This document shows positions 34,716 to 49,510 of a stretch of 64,000 nucleotides of DNA, piece by piece. The notes below the pieces were generated by a model. That model ran no database searches. It was not told where the DNA came from and worked only from the letters and a program-made list of their open reading frames with translations. The DNA comes from an uncultured Phycisphaerales bacterium (GTDB lineage Bacteria; Planctomycetota; Phycisphaerae; Tepidisphaerales; Tepidisphaeraceae). The position numbers and the translations under genes are program-made. How positions within the stretch are numbered: position 1 is the stretch's first letter; every line of letters starts with the position of its first letter. Location: positions 1,024,001 through 1,088,000 of the forward strand of contig CAWJPJ010000006.1 in NCBI GenBank assembly GCA_963844715.1, in the 5' to 3' direction.

Positions 34716-36347
34716 TCAATCGGACGCTTCGATGCCTAAATCTTTCACTTTTTTATTGAGCGTGTTGCGGTTGATTCCGAGAAAATCGGCGGCCTTGGTC
34801 TTGACCCCGCCGCATTTGGCCAGGGCGCGGTCGATGAGGGCGTGCTCGATTTGCTCGATCACCAGGGAGTATATCTCCCCTTCGCGCATTTCGTAATCGG
34901 CGATCGCCTGATCGGCGAGGCGGCGGGTGAGGGTTTCAATGGATTCGCTGGATTGGGCCTGGCGGCGCTGCTGGGCAAAAATGCGGACGCTCAGGGGGAG
35001 CAATTCCTCGTGGAAATCCTCATCCGTGCTGAGGACCACGGCGCGCTCGATGGTGTTTTCCAGTTCGCGGACGTTCCCGGGCCAGGGATAGCGGAGCAGG
35101 ACGTTGAGCATATCGCGGCTGATTCGCCGCAGCTTTCGCTCGTTTTGCGAATTGTATTTATCGAGGAAGAAGTCGATCAGGCGCGGGACGTCTTCGCGGC
35201 GATTGCGTAACGGAGGGAGATAGACGCTGACGACGTTGAGGCGGTAGAAAAGGTCCTCGCGGAAAGCGCCCTTGGCGACTTGTTCCTGGAGATCGACGTT
35301 GGTGGCGGCGATGACTCGGACGTCGACCTTGACGGTTTGCGTGTCGCCGACGCGCTCGAATTCGCGCTCCTGTAGAACGCGCAGAAGCTTGACCTGCAAC
35401 TGGGGCTCGAGGGTGCCGATTTCGTCGAGGAAAATCGTGCCGGCATCGGCGGCCTCGAAGCGGCCCTGTTTGTCGCGGATGGCGCCGGTGAAGGAGCCTT
35501 TGACGTGGCCGAAGAGTTCGCTTTCCAGAAGCGTGCCGCTGAGTGCGCCGCAGTTGACGCGGATGAAGCTTTTGTCCTTGCGGGGGGAGTTATAGTGAAT
35601 CGCCTTGGCGATCATTTCCTTTCCGGTGCCGGTTTCTCCCAAAAGTAAAACCGTCGCGCGGCTGTTGGCGACCTGGCCGACGGTAGCGAAGACTTCGTGC
35701 ATCGCGGGGGAGTCGCCGATGATGTTTTCGAAACGGTAGCGATCGCGCACCTGGGCGCGGAGCTGGGCGTTCTCCTCGAGGAGTTCTTCCTTCTGGCGCA
35801 TCATCATGCGGTTGATTTGAATGGCTTGCGCCAAAAAGGCGGAAATGATTTCCAGGAAAGTTTGATCGCCCTGCAGCGCTTCGGTCGTGGCCAGCGGTTT
35901 GTCGACGGAAAGGGCCCCGGCGGTGCGGCCTTCGATCTTAATGGGGATGCAGAGGAAGCTCATCGGGGTGCCGGAGTCGGGGGCGAGGCGGCCGGTTTTG
36001 TTGAGGAAATCGGGTTCCAAGCGGACGTCCTGAATAATCCGTGCCCGTCCGGTGGCGACTACGTTCCCGGTAATTCCTTCACCCAAGGCGTACTTGCCGC
36101 GTTCGATGTCTTCGGGGGGGATGCCGACTGCCGCCTCTGTGCGCAGTCGGCCGGAGGAATCATCGAGGAGGACGAGGGCGCCGCGCCGCATATCCAGCTT
36201 TTCTGAAATGATTTGCATCATCTTTCCGAACGCATCGCGGAGATCGAGCGTGGAGGAAAGAATGCGGCCGATCTCCATGAGAATGGCCAATTCCTGTTCA
36301 GAGGAAGCGCGGGGTGCTTGGGAATTAGGCGGCATGGACCCTTCCAT
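34716..36347 (-). CDS. GAF-domain sigma54-dependent activator (NifA-like architecture)
   Basis: GAF 'GEGITGNV', Walker A 'GETGTGKE', 'ESELFGH..GSFTGA', 'FLDEIG', 'WPGNVREL', Fis-type HTH. Confidence 0.92.
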
Positions 36348-36509
36348 GTCTATAATGTACGCAGGAGGAGCGGCGAGGGCAAATTTGCACCCATAAATCG
36401 ATGAAAAGTCTTGAGTAATCGAGATTTGAGTCGCCGCGACGGACTGTCGATAGGGATATTAACGATTTTTCCGCCTGTTAGAAGCGCCGCGGCGGTCGAG
36501 AGCGTGCAT

Positions 36510-37647
36510 ATGTGGTCGTTTTGGCTGATGGCGGCGGGGTTCGGGGCGCTGGGGGCGGCAGGGGCACTCTTTTACCTATTTCGTCAGGTCCGGAGTCAGA
36601 ACGCCGTTCAGCAATCCCTCGCCGAACGCACGGCGACGGTGAATCGGCTTCTAGAGTTTTCCCAAACCATCCAGGGCGCCGGCAAGCCGGATCAAATCTT
36701 TGCGTCTCTTACCCATTACTTGAAATCAGAACTTGGGCTTTGGGGGCTGGTGATCCTGACCAACGAGGCGGATGCCGTGCCGGCGATCGAACTGCGCGGC
36801 GTGGCCCGAGAATTTGATTTCAACAGCGGCGCTGGCGGAGATGGAACCGGCGCTATGCCCGTGCCTGCGTCAGAATCTGCCGCGCGTTTTTAAGCCGGAT
36901 AATTCACCGGTGCGGTGCGGCGTGGATTCGTGTTTGCACTTGCCGACGACTCACGCGGCGTATTGCATTCCGTTCACGATTGGGACGAAGGTTCAGGCCG
37001 TCGCCCACATGGTTCTGCCGGTGCGCATGGAGTGGAACGAGCAGCGCCAGCAACTGGCGCAAACATACATCAACAGCGCACAGTCGGTGCTGACATCGCT
37101 AAACCTGCTGGCGGAGGCCGAAAAACAGTCGATGACGGATGCGCTGACGGGACTGTACAACCGCCGATCAATGGATCAACTGCTTCAGCGCGAAGTGGCG
37201 ATGGCGGAACGATATGGGCATCCGATGTCGCTGGTGATGATCGACCTGGATTACTTCAAGGAGATCAACGACGCGCACGGGCACGCAGCGGGCGATCACA
37301 TGCTTCGCGCGTTTGCGGATTGCGTGCGGATCACGCTGCGGAAGACGGATCTGGCGTTTCGGTATGGGGGAGATGAGTTCGTCATTGCGCTGCCGCAGAC
37401 GCCGCTGTTTCAAGCGCAGCAGGTTGTGCAGAAGCTCCGGCAGGCGTTTTTGTCGGTCGACTTCTCGCACGCCATCACGCATCTGGACAAGAATCCGACC
37501 CTGAGCATTGGGGTCGCCGAGCGGAGCAAGACGGGGAACATATTGACGCTGGCGAGCCTTCTGTCCGCGGCTGATCAAGCGCTTTATAACGCCAAAAACA
37601 GCAATCGGAATTGCGTCCGTGTCTTCGAGCCTCCACAGGCTGCATAA
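36510..37647 (+). CDS. Membrane-anchored diguanylate cyclase, frameshifted
   Basis: N-terminal TM, 'TDALTGLYNRR', 'DLDYFK.IND..GH..GD', I-site RKTD, 'YGGDEF'. Confidence 0.9.
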
Positions 37648-37820
37648 ACGGACCCGCCCAATATCACCTCAAATTGCACTGCAACTGCCGCTTGGCATTA
37701 ATCTTATCCGTCAAATTGAGGCGGATATTTTTGTGTTGCCCATGTAAATTGGTGTAGGATATAGGGCAAGCGTAACTCTTAAGTGGCGGCAGAAGTCCTG
37801 TGGAGACAGGGGGCTTTGCG

Positions 37821-38816
37821 ATGCAAATGGCAGTAGGGCAGGCAGTTTCAGATCGCCCGGTCATGGGCGCATTGCCGGAATTTGAATCGCGCTTCATCGT
37901 TCAATCGTCGGCGATGACCCGCGTTCAACAGGCGGCGAAGGCCGTGGCCACGCGCGCAAGCACCGTGATGCTTCTGGGGGAAACCGGCAGCGGCAAGGAG
38001 ATGCTGGCGCGGTTCGTTCACGAGAATTCCCCGCGGAAAAATCAGCCGTTTATTCCCGTCGACTGCTCGGCGTTGACCGAAACATTATTTGAAAGCCAGC
38101 TATTCGGGCACGTCAAAGGGGCATTCACCGGGGCTGTGCGCGATACCATGGGTTTCGTTCGCGCCGCCGACGGCGGGACGCTTTTTCTGGACGAAGTGGG
38201 CGAATTAACGCTGAATTTACAGGCAAAATTGCTGCGCGTGTTGCAGGAGCGCTGCGTCGTTCCGGTGGGCGGCACGCAGGCGTCTCCCGTTGACGTGCGC
38301 GTGGTCTGCGCCACGAATCGGGATTTGCAGGCGATGGTGGAACAAGAGACGTTTCGCCAGGATCTGTTTTTCCGAATCAACGTGGTGGTGCTGCGGGTTC
38401 CGCCGTTGCGCGAGCGCACGGAAGACATCGTGGCGTTGTCGGAATATTTCCTGGCGCGGCAGGCGGGGATGAGCCAGGAGCCGCGGAAATCTCTGCATCC
38501 CGACGCGGTGCAAAGCCTGATCAAATACAACTGGCCGGGGAACATCCGCGAGCTTTTCAATGTTTTGGAGCACGGGCACATCATGTCGCTGGGCCCGGTC
38601 GTTGAGTTAAGCGATTTGCCTCCCCCACTGAGCAATTCCGGGTTTGCGGGGCGCGTTCATGCGTCGGAGTTGAATCTCCAGCGGCTGGAGCGGAATGCGA
38701 TCATCGAAGCGTTGAAGCGCACGCGATTTAACCGCGCGGCGGCATGCCGTCTTTTGGGAATTGAGGCGCGTCGCTTGAATCGCCGAATTCTCGCCTTGCG
38801 CATCCCCCTGCCCTAG
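37821..38816 (+). CDS. sigma54-dependent activator (bEBP) without N-terminal sensor domain
   Basis: AAA+ domain begins after about 20 aa; 'GETGSGKE', intact GAFTGA, 'FLDEVG', 'WPGNIREL', C-terminal HTH. Confidence 0.92.
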   Translation: MQMAVGQAVSDRPVMGALPEFESRFIVQSSAMTRVQQAAKAVATRASTVMLLGETGSGKEMLARFVHENSPRKNQPFIPVDCSALTETLFESQLFGHVKGAFTGAVRDTMGFVRAADGGTLFLDEVGELTLNLQAKLLRVLQERCVVPVGGTQASPVDVRVVCATNRDLQAMVEQETFRQDLFFRINVVVLRVPPLRERTEDIVALSEYFLARQAGMSQEPRKSLHPDAVQSLIKYNWPGNIRELFNVLEHGHIMSLGPVVELSDLPPPLSNSGFAGRVHASELNLQRLERNAIIEALKRTRFNRAAACRLLGIEARRLNRRILALRIPLP

Positions 38817-38868
38817 CCCATCTTACTATTTCTCGCGTTTTCAATCAGGTTATAATACGAGGGCGCGG

Positions 38869-39070
38869 CCAAAATGGTATTTTTCCGCCATATCCATTTA
38901 TAATCAAACAAGTTACGCGATCATCATACCCCCCACCACCCACCATTATGGCCGGTCGCGGTGCTTTGTTTGAATTTGAATGCAAAGGGCAATGCCAGCC
39001 ATAACCGTATTTATTTAGGGCACTTAGCATCAGATCGACGGACCTAATTTTAGGCGGCACGCGGTTCGTT
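38869..39070 (+). promoter_or_regulatory. sigma54-like promoter region, copy 1 (enhancer palindrome, IHF-like tracts, -24/-12-like box)
   Basis: CCAAAATGG 38869; ACC-CA-CCA-TTA-TGG-CC-GGT 38938-38956; CGGCACGCGGTTCGTT 39055-39070 (-12 is GT rather than GC); spacing matches copy 2. Confidence 0.65.
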
Positions 39071-39401
39071 ATAGCTTCCCGCGTAAGGCAGCGCCCATGA
39101 GCTAGGGCCATAAGGCTCTGTCCCTGTTGGGTGCGGATGCTTGCTCGATGGTGAGCTGGCATCGGGTGCTGCGGTAAGTGGATGGGTCGATCGCCGTAGC
39201 AGTTTTGATCGAATCCCAATTTGTTGTTCAGCCGTGTTCAGGGAGTCCCCCGCTGCGCGAGCCGCATGCCTAGAGCAGTGGCTTCGTTGTGGGTGTTGTG
39301 TGTACCGCCGGGAATTGTGCGGGGTGAGGTCCCCGTGATTTTCGGCGGAATTCGGAGTGGTGAAATAAGACAAGTCCCCTAACGGGGCCGAGGAGAGAAT
39401 C

Positions 39402-40745
39402 ATGAGTATCGTGGAGTCAACGAAGTCGAAGACACCCCGTATTACGCGACTTGAAGCCGTTGCCGGCGGAGCAATCATTGCTGCCGCCGTTTTCGCGGCT
39501 GCTCCGAAGTTCGCGTCCGCTCAATCCATTCAAATGCAGGTTTCGGGCGGCACCACGACCGACCCCACGGCCGCTGGCGCACTGACTTGGTTCAATACCT
39601 CGAACTGGAATAATGCCGGTGTTACCGGGACCCTTCCGGAAAGCGACACGGGCTCGCTCACCGCGCAAAACATCGCACCGGATAACGCCACGATGCCATC
39701 GGTGGGCTTGGTGTTTGATCCGGTCAACGACCCCAACGCGGCAGGACTTGGCGGTAACGCATATGTGGCGAACTTGGACGAGATTTCCGGTTCGACCTAT
39801 ATCGCTTCGGTTGCAGGAACTTATGCCGCTCCGGCAAAGCTCACGATCGAAAGCGGCACCCTCATCGCCGGCACAGCCACGGTTGGGCGCGATAGTCAGG
39901 GAATCCTGGCTCTCAACGGCGGAGCGTTCCTCACCGTCGGCTCAATCAAAATCCAAGGCACAAACAAGGCCGTTACGGCTATTGGTACTGGGACCTTCGA
40001 ATATCACGGAGGAACATTAGATGCCGAACAGGGCATCCAGCTCGGCTCGGGCGCTTGCAGTACGGGTCTAACCAAGACTTCAGCCGGTGTCGGCTACTTC
40101 ACGGTCTACAACGATGGCCCCGCCGGCGCGATTCTCAGCCAGAACGGTTTCCAGATCGCCACCAACACCAACCAGGCGGGCACGATCGGAATTGTTGAAT
40201 TCCACTATGACATCAACACGGGTGGAATCGGCGGAACCCGCCCGATCCAAACCAACGTGGACCAGGGCAACGGCGAAACCGGTCAGGGCATCCTGCACAT
40301 CCAAAATAACACCAACAATTCGGCGCGATTGAACCTTGTTCTTGACGCGGCGCCGAGCGTCATCGGCGGCCTCGTGCAGAATCTGGGCCTGTTCGATGAC
40401 ACCGTCATCTCGGGCTCCGGCACGTATCCGAAGGCCTTCTATTCAGTGGATGGCACGACGGTATTCACGCAAGGCGCCACCATCACGGCGGCATACATGG
40501 GCACGTCGTATAGCTGGACGATCAGCTATAGCGGGCAGATCAACTTCACGAATACGGCCACGTCAGGCTACGACTCGTCGGGAATCGATGCGGTTGGCGG
40601 CAACGACGTGGTACTGATCGGATTGCCGTCGGGCGGCGCTCCGCCGATCCCGGAACCGACCAGCTTGGCGCTACTCGGTGGCGCGGGCGGGATGATTATG
40701 GCCCGTCGCAGAAACAGGAAAGAAAACCAGGCCCCCAAAGCGTAA
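39402..40745 (+). CDS. PEP-CTERM sorting domain surface protein
   Basis: RBS GAGGAG; signal peptide ending 'ASA-Q'; G/T/N/S-rich body; C-terminal 'IPEPTSLALLGGAGGMIMARRRNRK'. Confidence 0.93.
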   Translation: MSIVESTKSKTPRITRLEAVAGGAIIAAAVFAAAPKFASAQSIQMQVSGGTTTDPTAAGALTWFNTSNWNNAGVTGTLPESDTGSLTAQNIAPDNATMPSVGLVFDPVNDPNAAGLGGNAYVANLDEISGSTYIASVAGTYAAPAKLTIESGTLIAGTATVGRDSQGILALNGGAFLTVGSIKIQGTNKAVTAIGTGTFEYHGGTLDAEQGIQLGSGACSTGLTKTSAGVGYFTVYNDGPAGAILSQNGFQIATNTNQAGTIGIVEFHYDINTGGIGGTRPIQTNVDQGNGETGQGILHIQNNTNNSARLNLVLDAAPSVIGGLVQNLGLFDDTVISGSGTYPKAFYSVDGTTVFTQGATITAAYMGTSYSWTISYSGQINFTNTATSGYDSSGIDAVGGNDVVLIGLPSGGAPPIPEPTSLALLGGAGGMIMARRRNRKENQAPKA

Positions 40746-40764
40746 AGCGCTGGCAGGTCTGAGC

Positions 40765-40826
40765 TAAAACTCTCCGCTACACCCCCGGCTCCTACCCTAC
40801 AATGCCCCGGGGGTTTTTTATGCGCC
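40765..40826 (+). terminator. Intrinsic terminator / direct repeat copy 1 (62 bp)
   Basis: Stem ACCCCCGG/CCGGGGGT, 18-nt C-rich loop, T tract; identical to 41164-41226 except T-run length. Confidence 0.9.
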
Positions 40827-40867
40827 GAGTTCGCCCCAAGTTTGAAGGCGCTTATGGGACCGGGTTA

Positions 40868-41068
40868 CCAAAGTAGTATGCTATTCGTCTATCCATATTG
40901 ATAACAAGGACTTAAATATCAAAATCACATATGTCCACCTACCAAAATGGCGGGTCTGGGCACGAGGTGAAGAATATAGAACCAGCAGTCTGATTGTTAT
41001 AACAGATGATTTGATAGGAAGTTAAAGAATTAATTGCCGATAGAAACAGCCGCGGCACGCAGTTAGCT
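40868..41068 (+). promoter_or_regulatory. sigma54-like promoter region, copy 2
   Basis: CCAAAGTAG 40868; IHF-like TAACAAGGACTTA; ACC-TA-CCA-AAA-TGG-CG-GGT 40937-40955; CGGCACGCAGTTAGCT 41053-41068 (GG-N10-GC). Confidence 0.7.
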
Positions 41069-41078
41069 GTTCATCGGG

Positions 41079-41219
41079 TGACCTAGTGGCTGCGGTGTTC
41101 GAAAGGACCCGCAGATTTGAAGATGAAAGCCGTCGTTGCCGAGTAAGGTGGCCACCGGCAGTTTAAAACTCTCCGCTACACCCCCGGCTCCTACCCTACA
41201 ATGCCCCGGGGGTTTTTTT
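41079..41219 (+). ncRNA. Putative sigma54-dependent small RNA (~140 nt)
   Basis: Lies between a sigma54 box and a terminator; GAAA-tetraloop hairpin 41090-41114; only a 7-codon ORF inside. Confidence 0.55.
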
Positions 41220-41248: not shown

Positions 41249-43441
41249 TTACTGGCCGATCTTGACGTAGTCTCTCCAAAACTCGCGATAGGCGCCCTCG
41301 ATGGCACGCACGAATCCAGGCACGTCCGTCAGGGGTGAGCTGCGCATTCTTTCCCGCAAGCTTGCGCGGAGGGCGGGAAGGCGCGGGAGGTCATTTGCCC
41401 AGGCGTCGGCGAGGCGGACGAACTCGGATTCGTCGGCAGCGGCCAGATCAGTCAGTTGCAAATTGCTCAATTGACTCAAGCCGGCACGCCCCACGCTGGT
41501 CTTGCCCACAAGCGTCAACACGGGGACGCCCATCCAATAAGAGTCGAGGCTCGTGGTATGACCGTTGTAAGGCAAGGTATCCAATCCGAGATCGATCCGC
41601 TGATAGGTCTGGAGGTATTGCCGGCGGGGCTGCTGAGGAACGAATTCGATGCGATCCTGGCCGAGCTGGCGAAGAACCGTCTCGCGCGCGGAACCGGGCG
41701 GGGCCATGAGGAGGATCCGCGAATCTGGAATTTGATCGAGAACGGTTTTCCACCTCCGCAGGGTTTCGGGTGTGACTTTGCAGAAGTTGTTCAGGCAGCC
41801 AAAAGTTAGGCGCCCGGATGAAATGGCCGGGAGGGGACCGACGTCCGGACCATCAAGCACGTCCATCGACTTGGGATCGTAACACCAAAAACTGTGTGGG
41901 AGCCGATGGACTTTTTCCGCGTAATGGCTGTCGGTTCGCCCGGCGGGATCGAGGTAGGGGTCGCTGAGGCGCCAGTCGATTGTTTCGAGGCCGGTGCCGC
42001 CGGGATAGCCGCCGAAGGTGACTTGGATTGGGGCGGGCTTGCGAGCGAAGAGAGGCAAGCGATTTCCCGCTGATTGCCCGGCCAGATCGACGAGAATATC
42101 GATCTTGTCGGCGCGGATCGTTCGTTCGGCGGTTTCGTCGTCCATCAGCTGGATATTCCGCCAGGCGACAGCAGCGGCGGAAACCTTTTGCGTGACGGAA
42201 TCGACTCTGGGGGAATTGGAATAGCAATAGGCCTGGATGGATAGGCGGTCGTGTCCGGTAATCAGCGGCAGGAGATTTCTTCCGACAGGATGGTCGCGGA
42301 AGTCGGCGGAGACGTAGCCGACGCGAAGGACCCGCTCGGGATGGCGATCGTTATCATGGGGGCGGGCCAGCGCCTTGAGCGGCGCGGCGTGCAGTTGAGA
42401 CCAGCGCTTGGCTTCGGCGAGAATCGCGGCGGGATCGTCGTGCGAATAATGCAGGGAAAAGACGAGATTGCCGTGGTACTCGGTGTCGGCGGGCGCAAGG
42501 GCCATGGCTCGGCGATAGCAATCTTCGGATTCGGCCAGGCGGCCGAGTTGTCGCAGGGCGTTGCCGAGATTATTGAATGCTGGGGCGAAATTTGGGCGGA
42601 GGTGGATCGCTTTGTTGCACGCCTCGACGGCGCCGTCGGGATCATTCTGATCGCATAGAGCATTTCCGAGATTGTTGAGGGCCTCGGGATAATCCGGGCG
42701 CACGCCGAGCGCTTTGCGATAGCTTTCGATGGCTTCGCGGACTTTGCCAATGGTGCGAAGGGCGATGCCGAGGTTGTAATGGGCGTCGGCCAGTTGAGGA
42801 TCGAGTTCAACGGCGCGGCGATACTCGGCAATGGCTTCGTCGAATTTGGCGGTGTTTCTCAGGGCTTCGCCCAGGTTGTTATGTCCGGCGGCGAAATTGG
42901 GGGCGATGGTGAGGAGCTTGCGGTAAGTTGAGATGGCGCGGGGGAGGTCTCCCTTGGACATCAGGGCGGCGGCGAGATTATTCAGGGCCTCGGGGTAATC
43001 CGGGCGGAGGGTGAGGGCCTGCTCGAATTCGGCGATGGCTTCATCGGGGTTCCCCGATGAGGCGAGGGCCACGCCGAGGTTGTACGCCAGTTGCGGGACG
43101 CGCGGGTGACGGACGATTGCCTTTCGCAAAACTTCGATTGCGCGGTCGAACTGACCGGTGGAGAGCAGGGCGTTGCCTAGATTGTTGCACGCCGAGGCGG
43201 ATGCGGGATCGATTGCCACGGCCCGCTCGAACTCGGCGACGGCGGCGGTTTTCTGGCCGGATTGAATCAGTAGAATCGCCAGTTCCTGAATGACGTCGGC
43301 ATCTCGCGGCTTGAGAGTCAGGGCCTGGCGGAAAAGTTGTTCCGCTTCGCGGATGCGCTCCCCCTGCTGAGCACGGCGGGCTCGCTGAAGAATTTCGTCA
43401 ATGTTGCCGAACGGTTTCAACGCGAAATTCCCTCTTGCCAT
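41249..43441 (-). CDS. TPR-repeat GT41 glycosyltransferase (SPINDLY/OGT-like) 4
   Basis: About 9 TPRs ('NNLGNAL'), 'RVGYVSADFRDHPV', 'DILVDLAG', 'PAPIQ', 'FGCLNNFCK', 'LDTLPYNGHTT'. Confidence 0.93.
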   Translation of the reverse strand: MARGNFALKPFGNIDEILQRARRAQQGERIREAEQLFRQALTLKPRDADVIQELAILLIQSGQKTAAVAEFERAVAIDPASASACNNLGNALLSTGQFDRAIEVLRKAIVRHPRVPQLAYNLGVALASSGNPDEAIAEFEQALTLRPDYPEALNNLAAALMSKGDLPRAISTYRKLLTIAPNFAAGHNNLGEALRNTAKFDEAIAEYRRAVELDPQLADAHYNLGIALRTIGKVREAIESYRKALGVRPDYPEALNNLGNALCDQNDPDGAVEACNKAIHLRPNFAPAFNNLGNALRQLGRLAESEDCYRRAMALAPADTEYHGNLVFSLHYSHDDPAAILAEAKRWSQLHAAPLKALARPHDNDRHPERVLRVGYVSADFRDHPVGRNLLPLITGHDRLSIQAYCYSNSPRVDSVTQKVSAAAVAWRNIQLMDDETAERTIRADKIDILVDLAGQSAGNRLPLFARKPAPIQVTFGGYPGGTGLETIDWRLSDPYLDPAGRTDSHYAEKVHRLPHSFWCYDPKSMDVLDGPDVGPLPAISSGRLTFGCLNNFCKVTPETLRRWKTVLDQIPDSRILLMAPPGSARETVLRQLGQDRIEFVPQQPRRQYLQTYQRIDLGLDTLPYNGHTTSLDSYWMGVPVLTLVGKTSVGRAGLSQLSNLQLTDLAAADESEFVRLADAWANDLPRLPALRASLRERMRSSPLTDVPGFVRAIEGAYREFWRDYVKIGQ

Positions 43442-45452
43442 GCGCGGCGAAAGGCGGACTCAACATCGGCGGCAAAGGCGCGGGCGTCGAGCAACCGCGA
43501 GGCGCGCATTTTTTCTCGGAGCGAGGGACGCAACTCCTCCAGACCGGTCATGGCGGCGGCCTTTTTCACGTATTCATCTTCGGAGCCAGCGGCCAGTTCC
43601 GCTAGCCCGAGATTTGTCAGCAAGCTGAGTCCGACGCGGCTGGCGTGAGTTTTGCCGGTCAATGTTACGACGGGAACGCCCATCCAGATCGCCTCGCAGG
43701 TTGTGGTTGTGCCGTTATAAGGATAGGTATCCAGGGCGATGTCCATCTCGGCATAGGTTTGCAAATGCTGGTGAATGGATGGGGATTTGCCGCGGAGATC
43801 GATGCGCGCGGGGTTGATGCCGACGGATGTAAAACGATGGAGAAATTCCGCCCTTGCTTCCGAGTCGCTCAATCCGGCGTTCTTGATCAGCAAACGGCTG
43901 TTGGGAACGGACTGGAGAATCCGAATCCATAGATCTGTCACCTTTTGATTCATTTTGGCCAGGTTGTTGAATGAACCGAAGGTGATGAAGCCGTTGCGCT
44001 TGGCGGGTTGCGGTGAGACTTCCGGCGCATCGGATGGGGGTTGATAGCAGACAAAGCTGTGCGGCAATCGGAGGAGTTTCTCACTGTAATATCCCTCGGT
44101 CATTCCGGGGGGATCGGCGTGGAAGTCCGTGAGGCGGTAATCCATGACGGAGAGACCCGTCGTGTCGGGACAGCCGAGGTAGGTGAATTGAACGGGAGCG
44201 GGTTTGCGGGCGAAGACGAGGAGGCGGTTGCCTGCGGTGTGGCCGGCCAAATCAACGAGGATGTCGATCTTATCCGCGCGGATCATGTCGGAAAGATTTT
44301 GATCGGTGACTCCTGTCGTGTCGCGCCAGTGGTGGACGAGTTTTTTCAATCGCGCTGTCGTCGCGTCACCTTTTAGCAAATCGGCATAGGCAAAAGTCTC
44401 CACCTGGTTCCGATCGTGACCGGCGAGGAGGCTTTCGATGAAGAATCCTACGGAGTGCTCACGGAAATCGGGGGAAACATAGCCAACGCGCAATCTTCGG
44501 TTGGGATCGCGATCAACATCGTAGGGATTAATCTGAGTTGCCAAGGGTTTGGCAAAGCGATCATTCCATTTTTGATGCTCGGCGAAAATTTCGCCGGGTC
44601 GGGGTCGGGAAGAAAATGCAGGGCCCAGAGAAGATTGTCGGCGGCGGGTGGATAGTTTTCCGCGCCGGAACGAATCAATGGCCTCGGGGATGTGGTTCAT
44701 ACCGAGGAGGGCGTTTCCTAGATTTGAATAAGCCTCGGCAAAATCAGGTCGCAAGCTGATCGCGCCCGTGCACGCGGCCGCGGATTCATGGAAACGGGCG
44801 GCGATGGAGAGGCTGTTCCCGAGATTGCTAAACGCCTCGGCAAAATCCGGCTTGATGGCGATCGCCTGGCGGTAGATTTCGATGGCTTCTTCGGTTTTTC
44901 CCTGACGCTCCAGGGCGCCAGCGAGATTATTCAGGGCCTGGGGATGGGGGCCAATGGCGGCGGTTTTGCGGAAATTTTCGACGGCGCCGTCCCAGTCGCC
45001 GGTGGCCCGATAGGCATCGGCCAGATTGTAGTACGAACCCGCGTCGTCCTTGTTGTATTGGATCGCGCTGCGGTAGGCGGAAATTGCCCCTTTCCAATCG
45101 GTCATCGCGCCCAGGGCGCAGCCGAGGTTAAACCAGGCCTGGGACCAATCGGACCGAATGGCAATGGCGCGGCGGCATGCCGCTGCCGCCTCAGCGGGCG
45201 CGAGAGGGCAAGAAGCACGACCGCGAGATTCAACTGGAAATCGGCGCGGCGCGGATCGATTGATGCGGCCCGCTCGAGCGGAGGCAGGGCTTCTCGCGCT
45301 CGCGCGGTTTGAAAAAGGAGAGTCCCGAGGAGATGGAGAGCCTGCGGGTCGTTGGGTTTTTCGGAGATTGCTTTTCTATAAAGCGTCTCGGCCTGGTCGA
45401 GGCGTCCGGCCTGGTGATGGGCGGCGGCGAGGGTGAGTGATTCGCTGGTCAT
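43417..45452 (-). CDS. TPR-repeat GT41 glycosyltransferase (SPINDLY/OGT-like) 3, frameshifted
   Basis: TPRs; 'RVGYVSPDFREHSV', 'DLAGHT', 'FGSFNNLAK', 'LDTYPYNGTTTTCEA.WMGVP'. Confidence 0.92.
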
Positions 45453-47425
45453 CCCGGCGATTTGCAGTATTCGACCCAGATTCGGCGAAGAGCCGCTTCG
45501 AAGCCGCGGGCGAATTTTGCTCCGTCCATGAGGGCGGATTCCTGCATGCGCGGACGCAAGGATGCCCGCAGCTCCCCGAGGCGCGCGGTGTCTGCGGCAA
45601 GGTCGGCGGCAATTTTAGTAAATTCCTCGGGGGTTTGGGCCGCAAGATTCTGGAGATTCAGATTCGACAGGGCCGTGTAAGAAGCGCGTCCCATGACCGT
45701 TGGACTGACGAGAGTCACGACGGGAACCCCCATCCATAAGGAATCGAACGTGGTGGTATGCCCGCTGCACGGATAGGTGTCGAGGGCGACATCGATTCGG
45801 TTGAACACGCGCAGATATTTCGCACGGAGCAGGCGGTCCATGAATTCAACCCGCTCCATGCTGATCCCTTTTTGGACGAACCGATCGGTGACGCGCTGCC
45901 GAGCCGAGCCTGGGGGCGCGAGCATGATGAACCGGGACGAGGGAACGGCTGCAAGGACGTCGGCCCACATGTCGAGCGTTTCGTCGTTGATTTTCCCAAA
46001 CGTGTTGAGAGAGCCGAAGGTGATGAAGGCGGCGTTCTTCGCCGGGAGAGGACCGACGATCGGCTCCTTCGTCATCGGATCGTAACACCAGAAACAATCG
46101 GGAAGAGGCATGGCAAGCTCGTTTCCCGGTGCGGCCACGGTTGGCGGGCCGTCGGGCGGTTCGAGAAAGCGGTCGGTGAGCCGCCAGTCGATGGTGTCGA
46201 GGCCCGACGTTCCGGGGTATCCCAGCCAACTGACCTGCACGGGCGCGGGTTTTCGCGCGAATGCGAGAAGGCGATTCCCCAGGGTGTGAAGCTTCAAATC
46301 GACGAGAATGTCGATCCCATCTTTGCGAATCTGCTCGGCCAAGTCCTCATCGTGCCAGCCATGGGTGAAGCACCAAGTATCGGCGTAGGTTTGAAACCTT
46401 TTCGTGGAGTCATCCGGTTCGTCAACATCGGCGTAGCAAAAAATCTCATATTGGGCGTGATCGAGATGGCTTAGAAGCGGTTCCAGGAAGAACTCACTGG
46501 CGTGGGCGAAAAAATCGGAGGATGAATAGCCGATGCGCAGGCGGCGTGTGGGATCGCGATCATTCTCATGGGCGCGGAGTTGCGATTTGAGCGGCGCCGA
46601 ATGCAGCTCGTTCCAACGGCGCATTTCGTCGGCCAGGACGCGCAAATCCATTTCCCCATAGTTCACAGTGCCGATAAACGTGCTTCGGTATGCGGCGCTG
46701 TCCGGGCGCAATTCGACGGCTTTGCGATAACTGGCCAGAGCCTCGGGTATCTTTCCCAGATCCTTTTGAATGTTGCCTAGATTGTTGTGAACGTCGGCGC
46801 GGTCGGGATTGAGATAGAGGGCGCGGCGGCAGGCGGTGAGGGCCTCGTCGTATTTCCCCTGGGTCCAGAGGGAATGGCCGAGATTGTTGTAAGCGACGGC
46901 ATCATTGGGACGCGCGGCAATGACCTGGCGAAAGGCTGTTTCCGCGTCCTCCTGGCGACCCAGGGTGCCCAGGGCGCTGCCGAGGTTGTTCAGGGCGTCG
47001 ACAAAATCGGCGCGAATGGCGAGGGTCTGGCGGAACATGGCGATCGCCTCCGGCAGGCGATGCATGGTCGCCAGGGCGATGCCGATATCGTTGGACGCCT
47101 CGGCGTAGTCGGGCTTCAGCTCAAGCGCACGCATCAGGGGTGCAATCGCCTCATGGGGCTTGCCCGACGTGCGCAGGACCACGCCCATGGCGTAATGCAG
47201 ATCGGCGCGCTGATCGTTCTTGGCGACGGCAAGCTGAATATGCTCCAGGGCAGCCTGGGGTTTTCCCTGTCTATATTCGAGAACGGCAATGCGATAGAGC
47301 AAATCGGGGGAATCGGGTTCGTGTTCCAGGAGCTGCTGAAAATGAACGCGCGCCTGTTCGAGATCGCCCGCCTTCTCGTGCCGGAGCGCTTGTTCGAGAA
47401 TTTGTTCCGCCGTCATCTCCGCCAT
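45449..47425 (-). CDS. TPR-repeat GT41 glycosyltransferase (SPINDLY/OGT-like) 2
   Basis: TPRs; 'RIGYSSSDFFAHAS', 'DLKLHT', 'WLGYPGT', 'FGSLNTFGK', 'LDTYPCSGHTT'. Confidence 0.92.
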   Translation of the reverse strand: MAEMTAEQILEQALRHEKAGDLEQARVHFQQLLEHEPDSPDLLYRIAVLEYRQGKPQAALEHIQLAVAKNDQRADLHYAMGVVLRTSGKPHEAIAPLMRALELKPDYAEASNDIGIALATMHRLPEAIAMFRQTLAIRADFVDALNNLGSALGTLGRQEDAETAFRQVIAARPNDAVAYNNLGHSLWTQGKYDEALTACRRALYLNPDRADVHNNLGNIQKDLGKIPEALASYRKAVELRPDSAAYRSTFIGTVNYGEMDLRVLADEMRRWNELHSAPLKSQLRAHENDRDPTRRLRIGYSSSDFFAHASEFFLEPLLSHLDHAQYEIFCYADVDEPDDSTKRFQTYADTWCFTHGWHDEDLAEQIRKDGIDILVDLKLHTLGNRLLAFARKPAPVQVSWLGYPGTSGLDTIDWRLTDRFLEPPDGPPTVAAPGNELAMPLPDCFWCYDPMTKEPIVGPLPAKNAAFITFGSLNTFGKINDETLDMWADVLAAVPSSRFIMLAPPGSARQRVTDRFVQKGISMERVEFMDRLLRAKYLRVFNRIDVALDTYPCSGHTTTFDSLWMGVPVVTLVSPTVMGRASYTALSNLNLQNLAAQTPEEFTKIAADLAADTARLGELRASLRPRMQESALMDGAKFARGFEAALRRIWVEYCKSPG

Positions 47426-47436
47426 CGCCAAACTTC

Positions 47437-49510
47437 CTACACGACAGGGCCGTTTGGGGCAACTGCCTGGCGCCACATGCGGCGGTAGGCCGCTTCAATA
47501 TTTCGCGCAAACCGCTTCGCGTCGGTCAGGGGGCACGCCTGCATCTTTTGGCGCAACTGGGCCCGAAGATCTGCCAGGCGAGTCAAATCTCGGGTCCAAT
47601 CGACGGCAATTTGAACGAATTGCGCTTCGTCGCGGGCGGCGAGTTCCGACAGATTCAGATTGGACAACTGGCTCCATCCGGCGCGGCCGACGCTCGTTTC
47701 GCCGATCAGTGTCACGACCGGCACGCCCATCCAAAAGGAATCGAGACCGGTGGTGTGGCCGTTATACGGAAGCGTATCCAGACCGAGATCGATGCGGTGA
47801 TACGTGTTCAAATAGTCATCACGCGGCTGCTGCGCGACGAATTCGATTCGGGCGGGATCGACGTTCAAAGTTTTTAGGACCCAATCGCGCGCGGAGCCTT
47901 GGGGGGCGAGAAGGACCAGCCGACTCTGCGGCACGGCCGCCAGAACCTGGGACCAAAGATTGAGCGTCTTGGCGTTGATCTTACAGAAGTTGTTGAGGCA
48001 ACCGAAGGTGACGAATCCATTAGTAATCGCCGGCAGAGGATTGACTTCGAAATTCCGGACATCCATCGCATCAGGATCGTAACACCAGAAACTGTCGGGG
48101 AGGCGAGCGAGTCGCTCGGTGTAAAGATTGTCGCCGAGTTCGGGTGGATCCAGATAGGGGTCGGTGATTCGCCAATCCATGGTTTCCAAACCTGTGCCGC
48201 CGGGATATCCGCCGAAGGTCGCCTGGATGGGGGCGGGCTTGAGCGCGAAGAGCGGGAGGCGATTGCCGGCGGTATGGCCGGATAGATCGACGAGGATATC
48301 GATTTGGTCCGCGACGATGGCGTCGGCGGCCTGGATGTCGCCGAGTAATCCGATCGGCCTCCATCCGTCTGATGCAGCGCGAAACTTTTCGGTGATCGAA
48401 TCGACGGTGCGCGAAGTGGGGTAGCAGAATATTTCGAAATTGGCGCGGTCGTGATTCAAAACGAGGGGGAGAATATTTTTCCCGACGGGATGGATGCGCA
48501 GATCGAATGAGACGTAGCCGATGCGCAGGCGGCGGTCCGGATTGCGATCGTTTTTGAGCGTGCGGCGCAGCGGGCGAAGGGGTTTGGCGTAGCGGTCGTT
48601 CCATGCGCGGCATGTGCTGGAGGAGGGTCTGGGCGGACTGCTGGGGATCGTAGAGCCCCAAGAAAACCAGATTGCTGCCGAATACCGGGTCGCCGGGGCA
48701 CAGATCGACGGCGCGGCGGTAATAAACCATGGCTTCGTCCATGCGTCCGACGGCGCGGAGAGCATTGCCGAGATTATTCAGGGCGGGAGGCGCGCTGGGA
48801 GCCAGCTCGACGGCGCGGCGGGCCTCGGCGATGGCGTCATCGAGCCGATTCGCGGACATCAAGGCGTTGGCGAGATTGTGGTGAGCCGGCGCGAAATCGG
48901 GACGAATCTGAATCGCCCGGCGGGCGGCGGTTATGGCCTCCTCGTTTCGATCCACCATCCAGAGGGCATCGCTAAGATTGCTCCATGCCTCGACATAATC
49001 CGCGCGAATCTCGACGGCGCGGCGGAAAAGATCGATCGCGTCGTCGAATCGGCCCTGCAATTTCCGGGCATTTCCGAGATTGTTATGCGCTGGCGCAAAA
49101 TCCGGGCTGGCGGCTATCGCCAAATTGACTTGGGAGATTCCGTCACCGATCCGGCCCAATTGGCAGAGGAGAACACCCAGATCGTTGTGGGCCTGGGGAA
49201 CCCCTGGCCGCAAATCGACAGAGGATTGCAGGGAGGCGATGGCTTCCTCCAATCGACCCTGTGCTTTGAGGGCGTAGGCGAGGTGCTGGTGATATTCCGC
49301 CTTGCGGAAATTCGCGGCGATCGCCTGGCGGAAATAATTTTCGGCCTCCTGCGGACGTCCGGAGCGCAAGAGCAGCTTGGCGAGATCGTGGAGGGCGTCT
49401 TCCCGCTGGGGCTGGCGCTGAAGAATTTGGCGATAGGTTGATTCGGCCTCGCCGATTCGCCCGGCCTGCTCGTGCTTCCTGGCGAGGTCGAGGGTCTGCT
49501 GGATATTCAT
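47437..49510 (-). CDS. TPR-repeat GT41 glycosyltransferase (SPINDLY/OGT-like) 1, frameshifted
   Basis: TPRs in 48071..49525; catalytic part in 47437..48765 ('RIGYVSFDLRIHPV', 'NNFCK', 'LDTLPYNGHTT'). Confidence 0.92.

Follow-up and report, generated by a model that had tools for sequence, protein, structure and literature searches.

The window analysed here is a stretch of 64,000 nucleotides from the genome of an uncultured Phycisphaerales bacterium, and the elements under study are two putative sigma-54 promoters (P1 and P2) located at 38869-41068 of it, with the transcription units that follow them. The locus consists, in order, of a GGDEF gene, a gene encoding a short bacterial enhancer-binding protein (bEBP), P1, a 320-nt leader, a PEP-CTERM gene (gene A), a terminator element (T1), P2, ca. 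90 nt of gene-free DNA, a second terminator element (T2), and convergent TPR/GT41 genes (Table 1). The window's genome (G000, 4.55 Mb) carries rpoN (TIGR02395, 384 bits over the cut-off), HU/IHF-family genes, and an exosortase, with 48 PEP-CTERM matches over the cut-off. Its 3965 genes and their start codons were called with a crude in-house caller. We compared the locus with two congeners (G001 and G002, the latter 95% complete), other relatives (G052, G151, and G004), and a metagenome contig nearly identical to G001 (L089). Relatives were searched by pattern in sets of 61 and 141 family genomes, and a sample of 401 genomes was used for the class.

Table 1 Predicted features of the locus, in window coordinates.
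Feature	Position	Strand	Basis or remark
GAF-AAA+-helix-turn-helix (HTH) NifA-like bEBP (GAF-bEBP)	34716-36347	-	Just below NifA cut-off; 2.5 kb upstream
GGDEF diguanylate cyclase gene, 3′ part	36772-37647	+	PF00990, E 1.8e-46; 5′ part at 36411-36893 in a different frame
Short bEBP, 338 aa, AAA+ and Fis-type HTH, likely cognate activator	37800-38816	+	PF00158 and PF02954 only; N-terminal regulatory domain absent
P1 distal degenerate enhancer site, core CCA-N3-TGG	38864-38882		74 bp upstream of the proximal site; offset also in P1 of G001 and in G052 promoters
P1 proximal enhancer palindrome	38938-38956		Genome-wide rank 2 for a matrix built from relatives alone
P1 YAA-N19-TTR AT-rich element, possible IHF/HU bend	39002-39026		In 9 of 10 promoters; P1 lacks a good IHF consensus
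P1 sigma-54 -24/-12 box, GT at -12	39055-39070	+	Predicted +1 near 39081; GT variant in G001, G002, and G151
Long structured 5′ leader of gene A, start predicted	39081-39401	+	Fold z -3.58; partly conserved in G001
Gene A, PEP-CTERM protein, 447 aa, unknown cargo domain	39402-40745	+	TIGR02595, 25.6 bits (cut-off 16)
T1, C/U-rich tail, hairpin, and U-run in the 3′ untranslated region (UTR) of gene A	40769-40819	+	62/63 identical to T2; kept in G001, with 3 nt inserted in the loop
P2 distal degenerate enhancer site	40863-40881		P1/P2 alignment
P2 proximal enhancer palindrome	40937-40955		Genome-wide rank 1; kept in G001 and L089
P2 YAA-N19-TTR element	41000-41024		Positional pattern of the promoter set
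P2 sigma-54 -24/-12 box	41053-41068	+	Predicted +1 at 41078-41080; cross-species conservation restarts at the predicted start
Predicted small RNA, ca. 142 nt, without conserved open reading frame (ORF)	41078-41219	+	Conservation against G001; no Rfam family
T2, 52-nt element with predicted pairing seeds	41168-41219	+	52/52 identical in G001; fold; target statistics

A sequence-only reading of this DNA had aligned P1 (38869-39070) and P2 (40868-41068) by eye and proposed that they share the same motifs at the same spacing. We aligned them formally and obtained a global score of 79, far above chance (dinucleotide shuffles, -6.3 ± 11.1, maximum 34; 0/2000 reached 79). The named blocks were recovered where that reading had placed them: a distal block at 38869 and 40868 (10/12 identical) lying 186 and 185 bp upstream of the CGGCAC boxes at 39055 and 41053, TATCCAT at +22 in both copies (7/7), the palindrome block (18/22), and ATAAC-N18-TTA beginning 54 bp before each box, with the two CCA cores 74 bp apart in each copy. 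Identity of the motifs exceeded that of the spacers (1/10 and 11/38; 34/100 over the 100 bp preceding the box). Across species, one of the blocks fails, TATCCAT being absent from both G001 promoters. The P2 box reads GG-N10-GC and the P1 box GG-N10-GT. The non-canonical GT at -12 of the first copy had been raised as a doubt; it is present, and because it is common to G001, G002, and G151, it is a conserved variant rather than decay. A sigma-70 reading of the region was rejected, as three promoter-like sites were found against 2.3 expected.

The genome of 4.55 Mb contains exactly two occurrences of the palindrome ACC-N2-CCA-N3-TGG-N2-GGT, both of them in this window, and a matrix built from relatives only ranked these two sites first and second. 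Relatives widen the consensus to RCCTRCCA-N3-TGGYAGGY. The pattern was found in 13 of the 141 family genomes, mostly as single matches; it is present in G001, G052 (nine times), and G151 (once), and G002 has a copy with one mismatch. We inspected 17 distinct sites, 14 of which were taken into a test of their spacing to a GG-N8-T-N-G[CT] box. Ten promoters from four genomes had a box 117-122 bp downstream of the site, three sites had it at 210-214 bp, the strong site then being the distal one, and one further site was a distal partner. The sites are grouped as pairs or triples with spacings of 74 and 93-96 bp. As a control, none of 20 unrelated single palindromes from the 401-genome class scan had a box in either orientation; a wider range of the enhancer was rejected accordingly, the single matches in these 20 other genomes looking like chance. 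The pattern with two mismatches was also discarded, its count being below that of its reversed control. The expectation that more sites precede other PEP-CTERM genes failed in G000 (1 of 53 PEP-CTERM-like ORFs called by regular expression) and was borne out in G052, where five such promoters lie upstream of PEP-CTERM genes. The regulon of this enhancer is larger in G052 (L038-L041, L063), where triple sites are spaced by 19-21 and 74 bp and the boxes carry the canonical TTGC; this is the best genome for defining the motif. At L158 (G002:C13:7900-21600), nine PEP-CTERM genes are clustered around another short bEBP, followed by a GT-variant box, and the palindrome there is only degenerate.

The enhancer-IHF-sigma-54 layout put forward earlier stands for its sigma-54 and enhancer parts (fixed spacing, rpoN, and an adjacent intact bEBP) and only partly for IHF. 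Between enhancer and box, an IHF consensus with at most one mismatch was found in 5 of the 10 promoters against 1.05 expected, and IHF-like scores peaked at fixed offsets (signal at -42; 0/500 circular shifts, a null that ignores relatedness); in P1, the best match still has three mismatches. ATAAC occurs in 3 of the 10 promoters, and YAA at -53 to -55 with TTR at -31 to -33 in 9 of them. The recurrence and spacing of the palindrome indicate that it is very probably a sigma-54 enhancer.

The Walker A, GAFTGA, Walker B, and WPGN motifs of the short bEBP are all intact. Its subfamily was found in 49 of the 141 family genomes and divides by recognition helix. Among 34 loci out of the 69 matches listed, a site with the CCA-N3-TGG core flanks five of eight bEBPs with an xxRRLNR helix (scores 11.8-30.2) and none of the 26 of the NIQ/NVQ type (maximum 8.4); the helix types occupy separate parts of the tree, which makes these rows non-independent. 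The short bEBP is probably the activator of the palindrome sites, judging from this association. In comparison with known families, neither the short bEBP (306.1 bits) nor the GAF-bEBP (333.6 bits) reached the cut-off for PrsR (TIGR02915, 502.6), and neither has a receiver domain; for the PspF family, the short bEBP scored 239.6 against a cut-off of 443.55. PspF and FleQ chains were among its matches, and control by c-di-GMP in the manner of FleQ was considered for it. The GAF-bEBP is a single-copy protein, 67-89% identical among the 55 of 61 family genomes that have it. Regulator-less bEBPs in which the helix is invariably NIQRLNRR form a sister clade (G000:C7:703665-704564 and 25 further loci) that is widespread in the family, and by eye its members stand several times beside purB- or thiG-like genes.

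The sequence-only reading was right on the enhancer and overlooked that the second copy would drive a unit without an ORF, which is the more interesting part. The P2 unit has its own promoter and an intrinsic terminator, both predicted, and no conserved ORF. A small protein from P2 was rejected, since the seven-codon ORF of G000 is not kept in G001. G001 and L089 keep T1, the enhancer, the box, the ORF-less unit, and T2. Identity to G001 was 52/104 columns in the promoter spacer, 61/90 in the 5′ part of the unit, 52/52 in T2, and 17/42 downstream. In its predicted fold, T2 has a C/U-rich tail that stays single-stranded, an 8-bp stem with a loop of 18 nt, and a U-run; a terminator scan with a loop limit of 8 nt missed this hairpin. 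A covariance model searched against the 141 genomes found two copies of the element in G000 and three in G001 (73-94 bits), the next match having 31 bits, and no copy in G002 at its 95% completeness. With only these copies, none elsewhere in the family genomes, and the drop from 73 to 31 bits, we rejected a mobile repeat or repetitive extragenic palindromic sequence. An assembly artefact was likewise rejected, as both T1 and T2 recur in G001 and L089. Rfam models, including ErsA/Pseudomon-1 and LhrC, gave at best 17-21 bits for the region against thresholds of 40-57, and Hfq (PF17209) was not found in any of five genomes, which are 61-95% complete.

The third G001 copy of the element is located 220 bp 3′ of another PEP-CTERM gene. 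At this locus (L145:2650-3560, G001:C8:25650-26560), which follows a PEP-CTERM gene and a second bEBP of the xxRRLNR type on their downstream side, the copy lies amid three repeats of a ~45-bp motif flanking a small ORF that looks by eye like a LuxR-like HTH; it is possibly a sibling RNA under another regulator. The terminators of the paralogues of gene A have the stem in common and the loop variable, which suggests that the element grew out of the terminator of this family. The likely origin of P2-T2 is a tandem duplication of promoter, gene, and terminator with loss of the coding part. The conservation of the unit makes it probable that P2 produces a functional RNA.

We scored targets by matching tail and loop, with perfect complementarity, to the region from -150 to +30 of each of the 3965 G000 genes. 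Gene A has five paralogues elsewhere in G000, and one of these, paralogue B (G000:C7:598877), is the sole gene with 9-nt matches to both seeds, GCGGAGAGT at -95 (tail) and GCATTGTAG at +4 (loop). It is preceded, by eye, by a sigma-70-like promoter. Both sites recur in its G001 counterpart, whose coding sequence agrees at 32 of the first 33 bases, the proteins being 40-82% identical per window. The G002 counterpart has neither site, and G002 is also without a match to the RNA model. Gene A shares the MSIV start with the paralogue and would escape, because its synonymous codons for MSIV lack the loop site. PEP-CTERM genes account for 42 of the 3965 genes overall, and for 10/53, 7/19, and 4/7 of those with scores of at least 14, 15, and 16, respectively; the last share was reached by 0 of 1000 seed shuffles. 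When the Shine-Dalgarno (SD) window was masked, the shares were 8/35 and 6/10. The enrichment held among long-intergenic genes, among genes with GGAG, and without the paralogues. PEP-CTERM leaders with a score of at least 14 numbered 11/43 in G000, 8/33 in G001, and 3/56 in G002, against 1.0-1.6 with shuffled seeds; leaders were recovered for 33 of 41 hidden Markov model matches in G001 and 56 of 57 in G002. With the paralogue family left out, the comparison was 14/69 vs 3/55 (Fisher p 0.019). The best non-paralogous target, G000:C6:419043, has no orthologue in four relatives. From these complementarities, we hold with moderate confidence that the P2 RNA acts by pairing with PEP-CTERM mRNAs, and by analogy its most likely effect would be repression.

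bEBPs bind enhancer sites and loop to the sigma-54 holoenzyme by an established mechanism. In the model to which we give slightly better than an even chance, the locus is a sigma-54 switch in which the short bEBP would bind the paired RCCTRCCA-N3-TGGYAGGY sites and loop to the holoenzyme, so that P1 and P2 would be started together. P1 would yield protein A, one PEP-CTERM surface protein, and P2 the small RNA, whose tail and terminator loop would mask other PEP-CTERM mRNAs at their ribosome sites, leaders, or first codons. This pairing would, from the complementarity and by analogy, lower the translation of the rival mRNAs, and the T1 copy derived from the 3′ UTR of the gene A mRNA may enlarge the RNA pool. 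A wider version is tentative, and we rate it somewhat below an even chance: a surface-coat switch in which the RNA from the 3′ end of gene A and from the gene-less duplicate would silence about a quarter of the other PEP-CTERM genes, gene A escaping, with the RNA newly born from a terminator and its targets co-evolving.

Several observations weigh against the switch. Three of the 17 palindrome sites (L039:6237, L049, and L054) are without a box at the spacing, a slightly different box pattern having been used, and the spacing range of 116-123 bp, for which chance gives 2% per oriented site, was set after the data had been seen. The element is present in two species only, the third copy is without the 3′ half of the loop seed, the fold of the P2 unit is ordinary (z -1.44), and there are 0 compensatory pairs among 28 between the two available sequences. 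The target-score thresholds were chosen post hoc, and G002 is a single and more distant control. When the tail was kept and the loop alone shuffled, p was 0.02-0.049. Co-folding energies of the whole element, computed against a background of 900 of the 3965 genes, discriminated poorly and failed to set paralogue B apart, placing it at the 10th percentile at the start and the 4th upstream; the G002 gene reached 1.7% through SD pairing, and the host gene A 9.3% and 6.0%. Three G000 paralogues are without an 8-nt loop site, and the sigma-54-driven G002 gene has a 7-nt loop site. In G001, the T1-P2-T2 cassette follows a gene with a sigma-70-like promoter that bears both target sites, which does not fit a simple switch; paralogues have either exchanged parts here, so that the gene would limit itself, or the assembly contains a mis-join.

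Some of these points would be accounted for if the sigma-54 promoters were real and P2 with its terminator were the remnant of a duplicated gene giving a short functionless transcript. P2-T2 resembles P1-gene-T1 minus the gene, its folding is unremarkable, and homogenisation within a species with locus shuffling of paralogues could keep T1 and T2 alike. However, homogenisation within a genome does not keep 52/52 bases between species with spacers of ~50% identity, the P2 enhancer and box are kept in G001, and the enrichment of target sites tracks the presence of the element; we regard a mere remnant as decidedly unlikely. It is also unlikely, though a little less so, that the small RNA is real but a general anti-SD or protein-binding RNA, the enrichment reflecting purine-rich PEP-CTERM leaders. 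Such an RNA would fit the part that is invariant over five copies, comprising the C/U-rich tail with the loop's 5′ half and matching GGAGAG and AGGAG, as well as the GGAG ribosome site in 21 of 42 PEP-CTERM genes vs 24% of all genes and the weakness of the loop-only tests. It does not fit the persistence of the enrichment after SD masking and in the long-intergenic and GGAG subsets, its absence from the G002 PEP-CTERM leaders, or the sites at +4 and -95, which fall outside the SD.

The element might instead act in cis, pairing with its own mRNA at the 5′ end, or be an unusually constrained terminator or stability hairpin, as could be read from G001, where it ends the very gene bearing both sites, and from its position facing the convergent TPR gene. 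This is highly unlikely, given that the G000 host gene is without the sites while unlinked genes have them, and that for the copy standing alone behind its own promoter there is no mRNA on which to act in cis. As for the activator, the palindrome could be bound by another factor, such as the GAF-bEBP or a repressor, with the short bEBP as a bystander. The GAF-bEBP gene is nearby, several further bEBPs are encoded in the genome, and three of the eight bEBPs with the same helix, one of them in G004, have no nearby site, a point that also counts against the switch. On the other hand, the GAF-bEBP is disfavoured because it is far wider (55/61) than the motif (13/141), it is on a separate contig from the short bEBP in G002 and G052, and the site directly adjoins the short bEBP gene in five genomes; binding by another factor is therefore rather improbable.

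The leader of gene A folds better than all of 100 shuffles and, compared with G001 (two sequences only), shows changes of both partners in 13 of its 58 predicted pairs. It had no match in Rfam, and may be a cis-regulatory RNA. In one metatranscriptome run, which holds 6% of the words, a 173-nt contig maps to 39139-39311 in the P1 leader with zero differences, although such a contig cannot reveal transcription starts. The same run contained nothing from this organism on 19.9 kb of neighbouring DNA. No contig fell on the predicted small RNA or gene A, and such missing cover proves nothing. This single run is a weak hint that P1 fires and is silent on P2. Protein A had no viral relative, and its Atlas matches were hypothetical clusters only (at most 0.90). 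The PEP-CTERM paralogues are more alike within than between species, which is consistent with concerted evolution or recombination. Between G000:C7:598300-600300 and L036 and L115 (G001), two paralogous PEP-CTERM genes have their 5′ and 3′ flanks swapped. In the five paralogue loci, there was no Rfam match at threshold.

The GGDEF gene lies upstream of the short bEBP gene in all three congeners (G000, G001, and G002), and its reading frame is unbroken in G001. Genes split by frame shifts are frequent in the G000 assembly, including the GGDEF gene (36411-37647), two paralogues (G000:C6:344708-349107), and several bEBPs, and are probably sequencing errors. Downstream, arrays of TPR and glycosyltransferase-41 (O-GlcNAc-transferase-like) genes (41249-47476, minus strand; also L036, L037, and L112-L115) repeatedly adjoin the PEP-CTERM family of gene A in the three congeners, and their products might glycosylate the neighbouring PEP-CTERM proteins.

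bEBPs of the PspF type have no regulatory domain, and NorR reportedly acts from an enhancer with multiple sites. The short bEBP is like the PspF type in comprising only AAA+ and HTH domains, and its promoters are like NorR enhancers in having two or three spaced sites; it differs from PspF in falling below the family cut-off and in its different site. The PEP-CTERM box described by Haft et al. (2006, PMC1569441) is a motif ending in TTTACA, found only in Proteobacteria, with a mean spacer of 62.8 nt and a receiver-domain regulator; no PrsR is listed there for Rhodopirellula. Our locus resembles this PEP-CTERM box/PrsR system and pepA of Aquincola (PMC9850573) in having a sigma-54 box with an upstream activator site, PEP-CTERM genes, and large intergenic regions. 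In contrast, the palindrome is different and lies, from its end to the box, ~100 bp away, the TTTACA motif is absent from P1 and P2, and the putative regulator is a short bEBP without a receiver, below the TIGR02915 cut-off. A PEP-CTERM regulator of Desulfovibrio is treated in PMC3333781.

Among RNAs, the element is like LhrC of Listeria monocytogenes (PMC4132741), which blocks translation of the mRNA of a cell-surface protein without need of Hfq, in being multicopy with CU-rich motifs in a stretch that is single-stranded and in the loop of the terminator. Unlike LhrC, which is controlled by LisRK, it would depend on sigma-54; it belongs to another phylum and has no Rfam match or sequence relation to LhrC, one of its copies forms a 3′ UTR, and codons 2-4 are spanned by a gene-specific seed. 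It is also like s-SodF of Streptomyces coelicolor (PMC3919588), where a 3′ UTR contains a stretch complementary to a rival gene's 5′ end and regulation is inverse. However, s-SodF has a single perfect 19-nt match, one target, and no promoter of its own, whereas here the seeds are two and short, several targets are predicted, and one copy stands alone under a duplicated promoter that is enhancer-dependent. A phylum-wide sigma-54 survey (PMC12316311) mentions neither PEP-CTERM nor small RNAs in its main text. Searches of the open-licence literature, supplements aside, turned up no paper describing the motif, the bEBP subfamily, or the RNA, and none on a base-pairing small RNA for Planctomycetota.

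For PEP-CTERM genes beyond Proteobacteria, where Haft et al. (PMC1569441) found no regulatory motif, the locus supplies an explicit enhancer sequence together with a candidate activator; for Planctomycetota, it supplies a testable candidate for a base-pairing small RNA. It also shows one route by which a small RNA may be born, in which promoter and terminator are duplicated and the ORF is dropped. If the model is true, cells with 40-60 exosortase-sorted surface proteins would change their coat through activation coupled to RNA repression, without Hfq.

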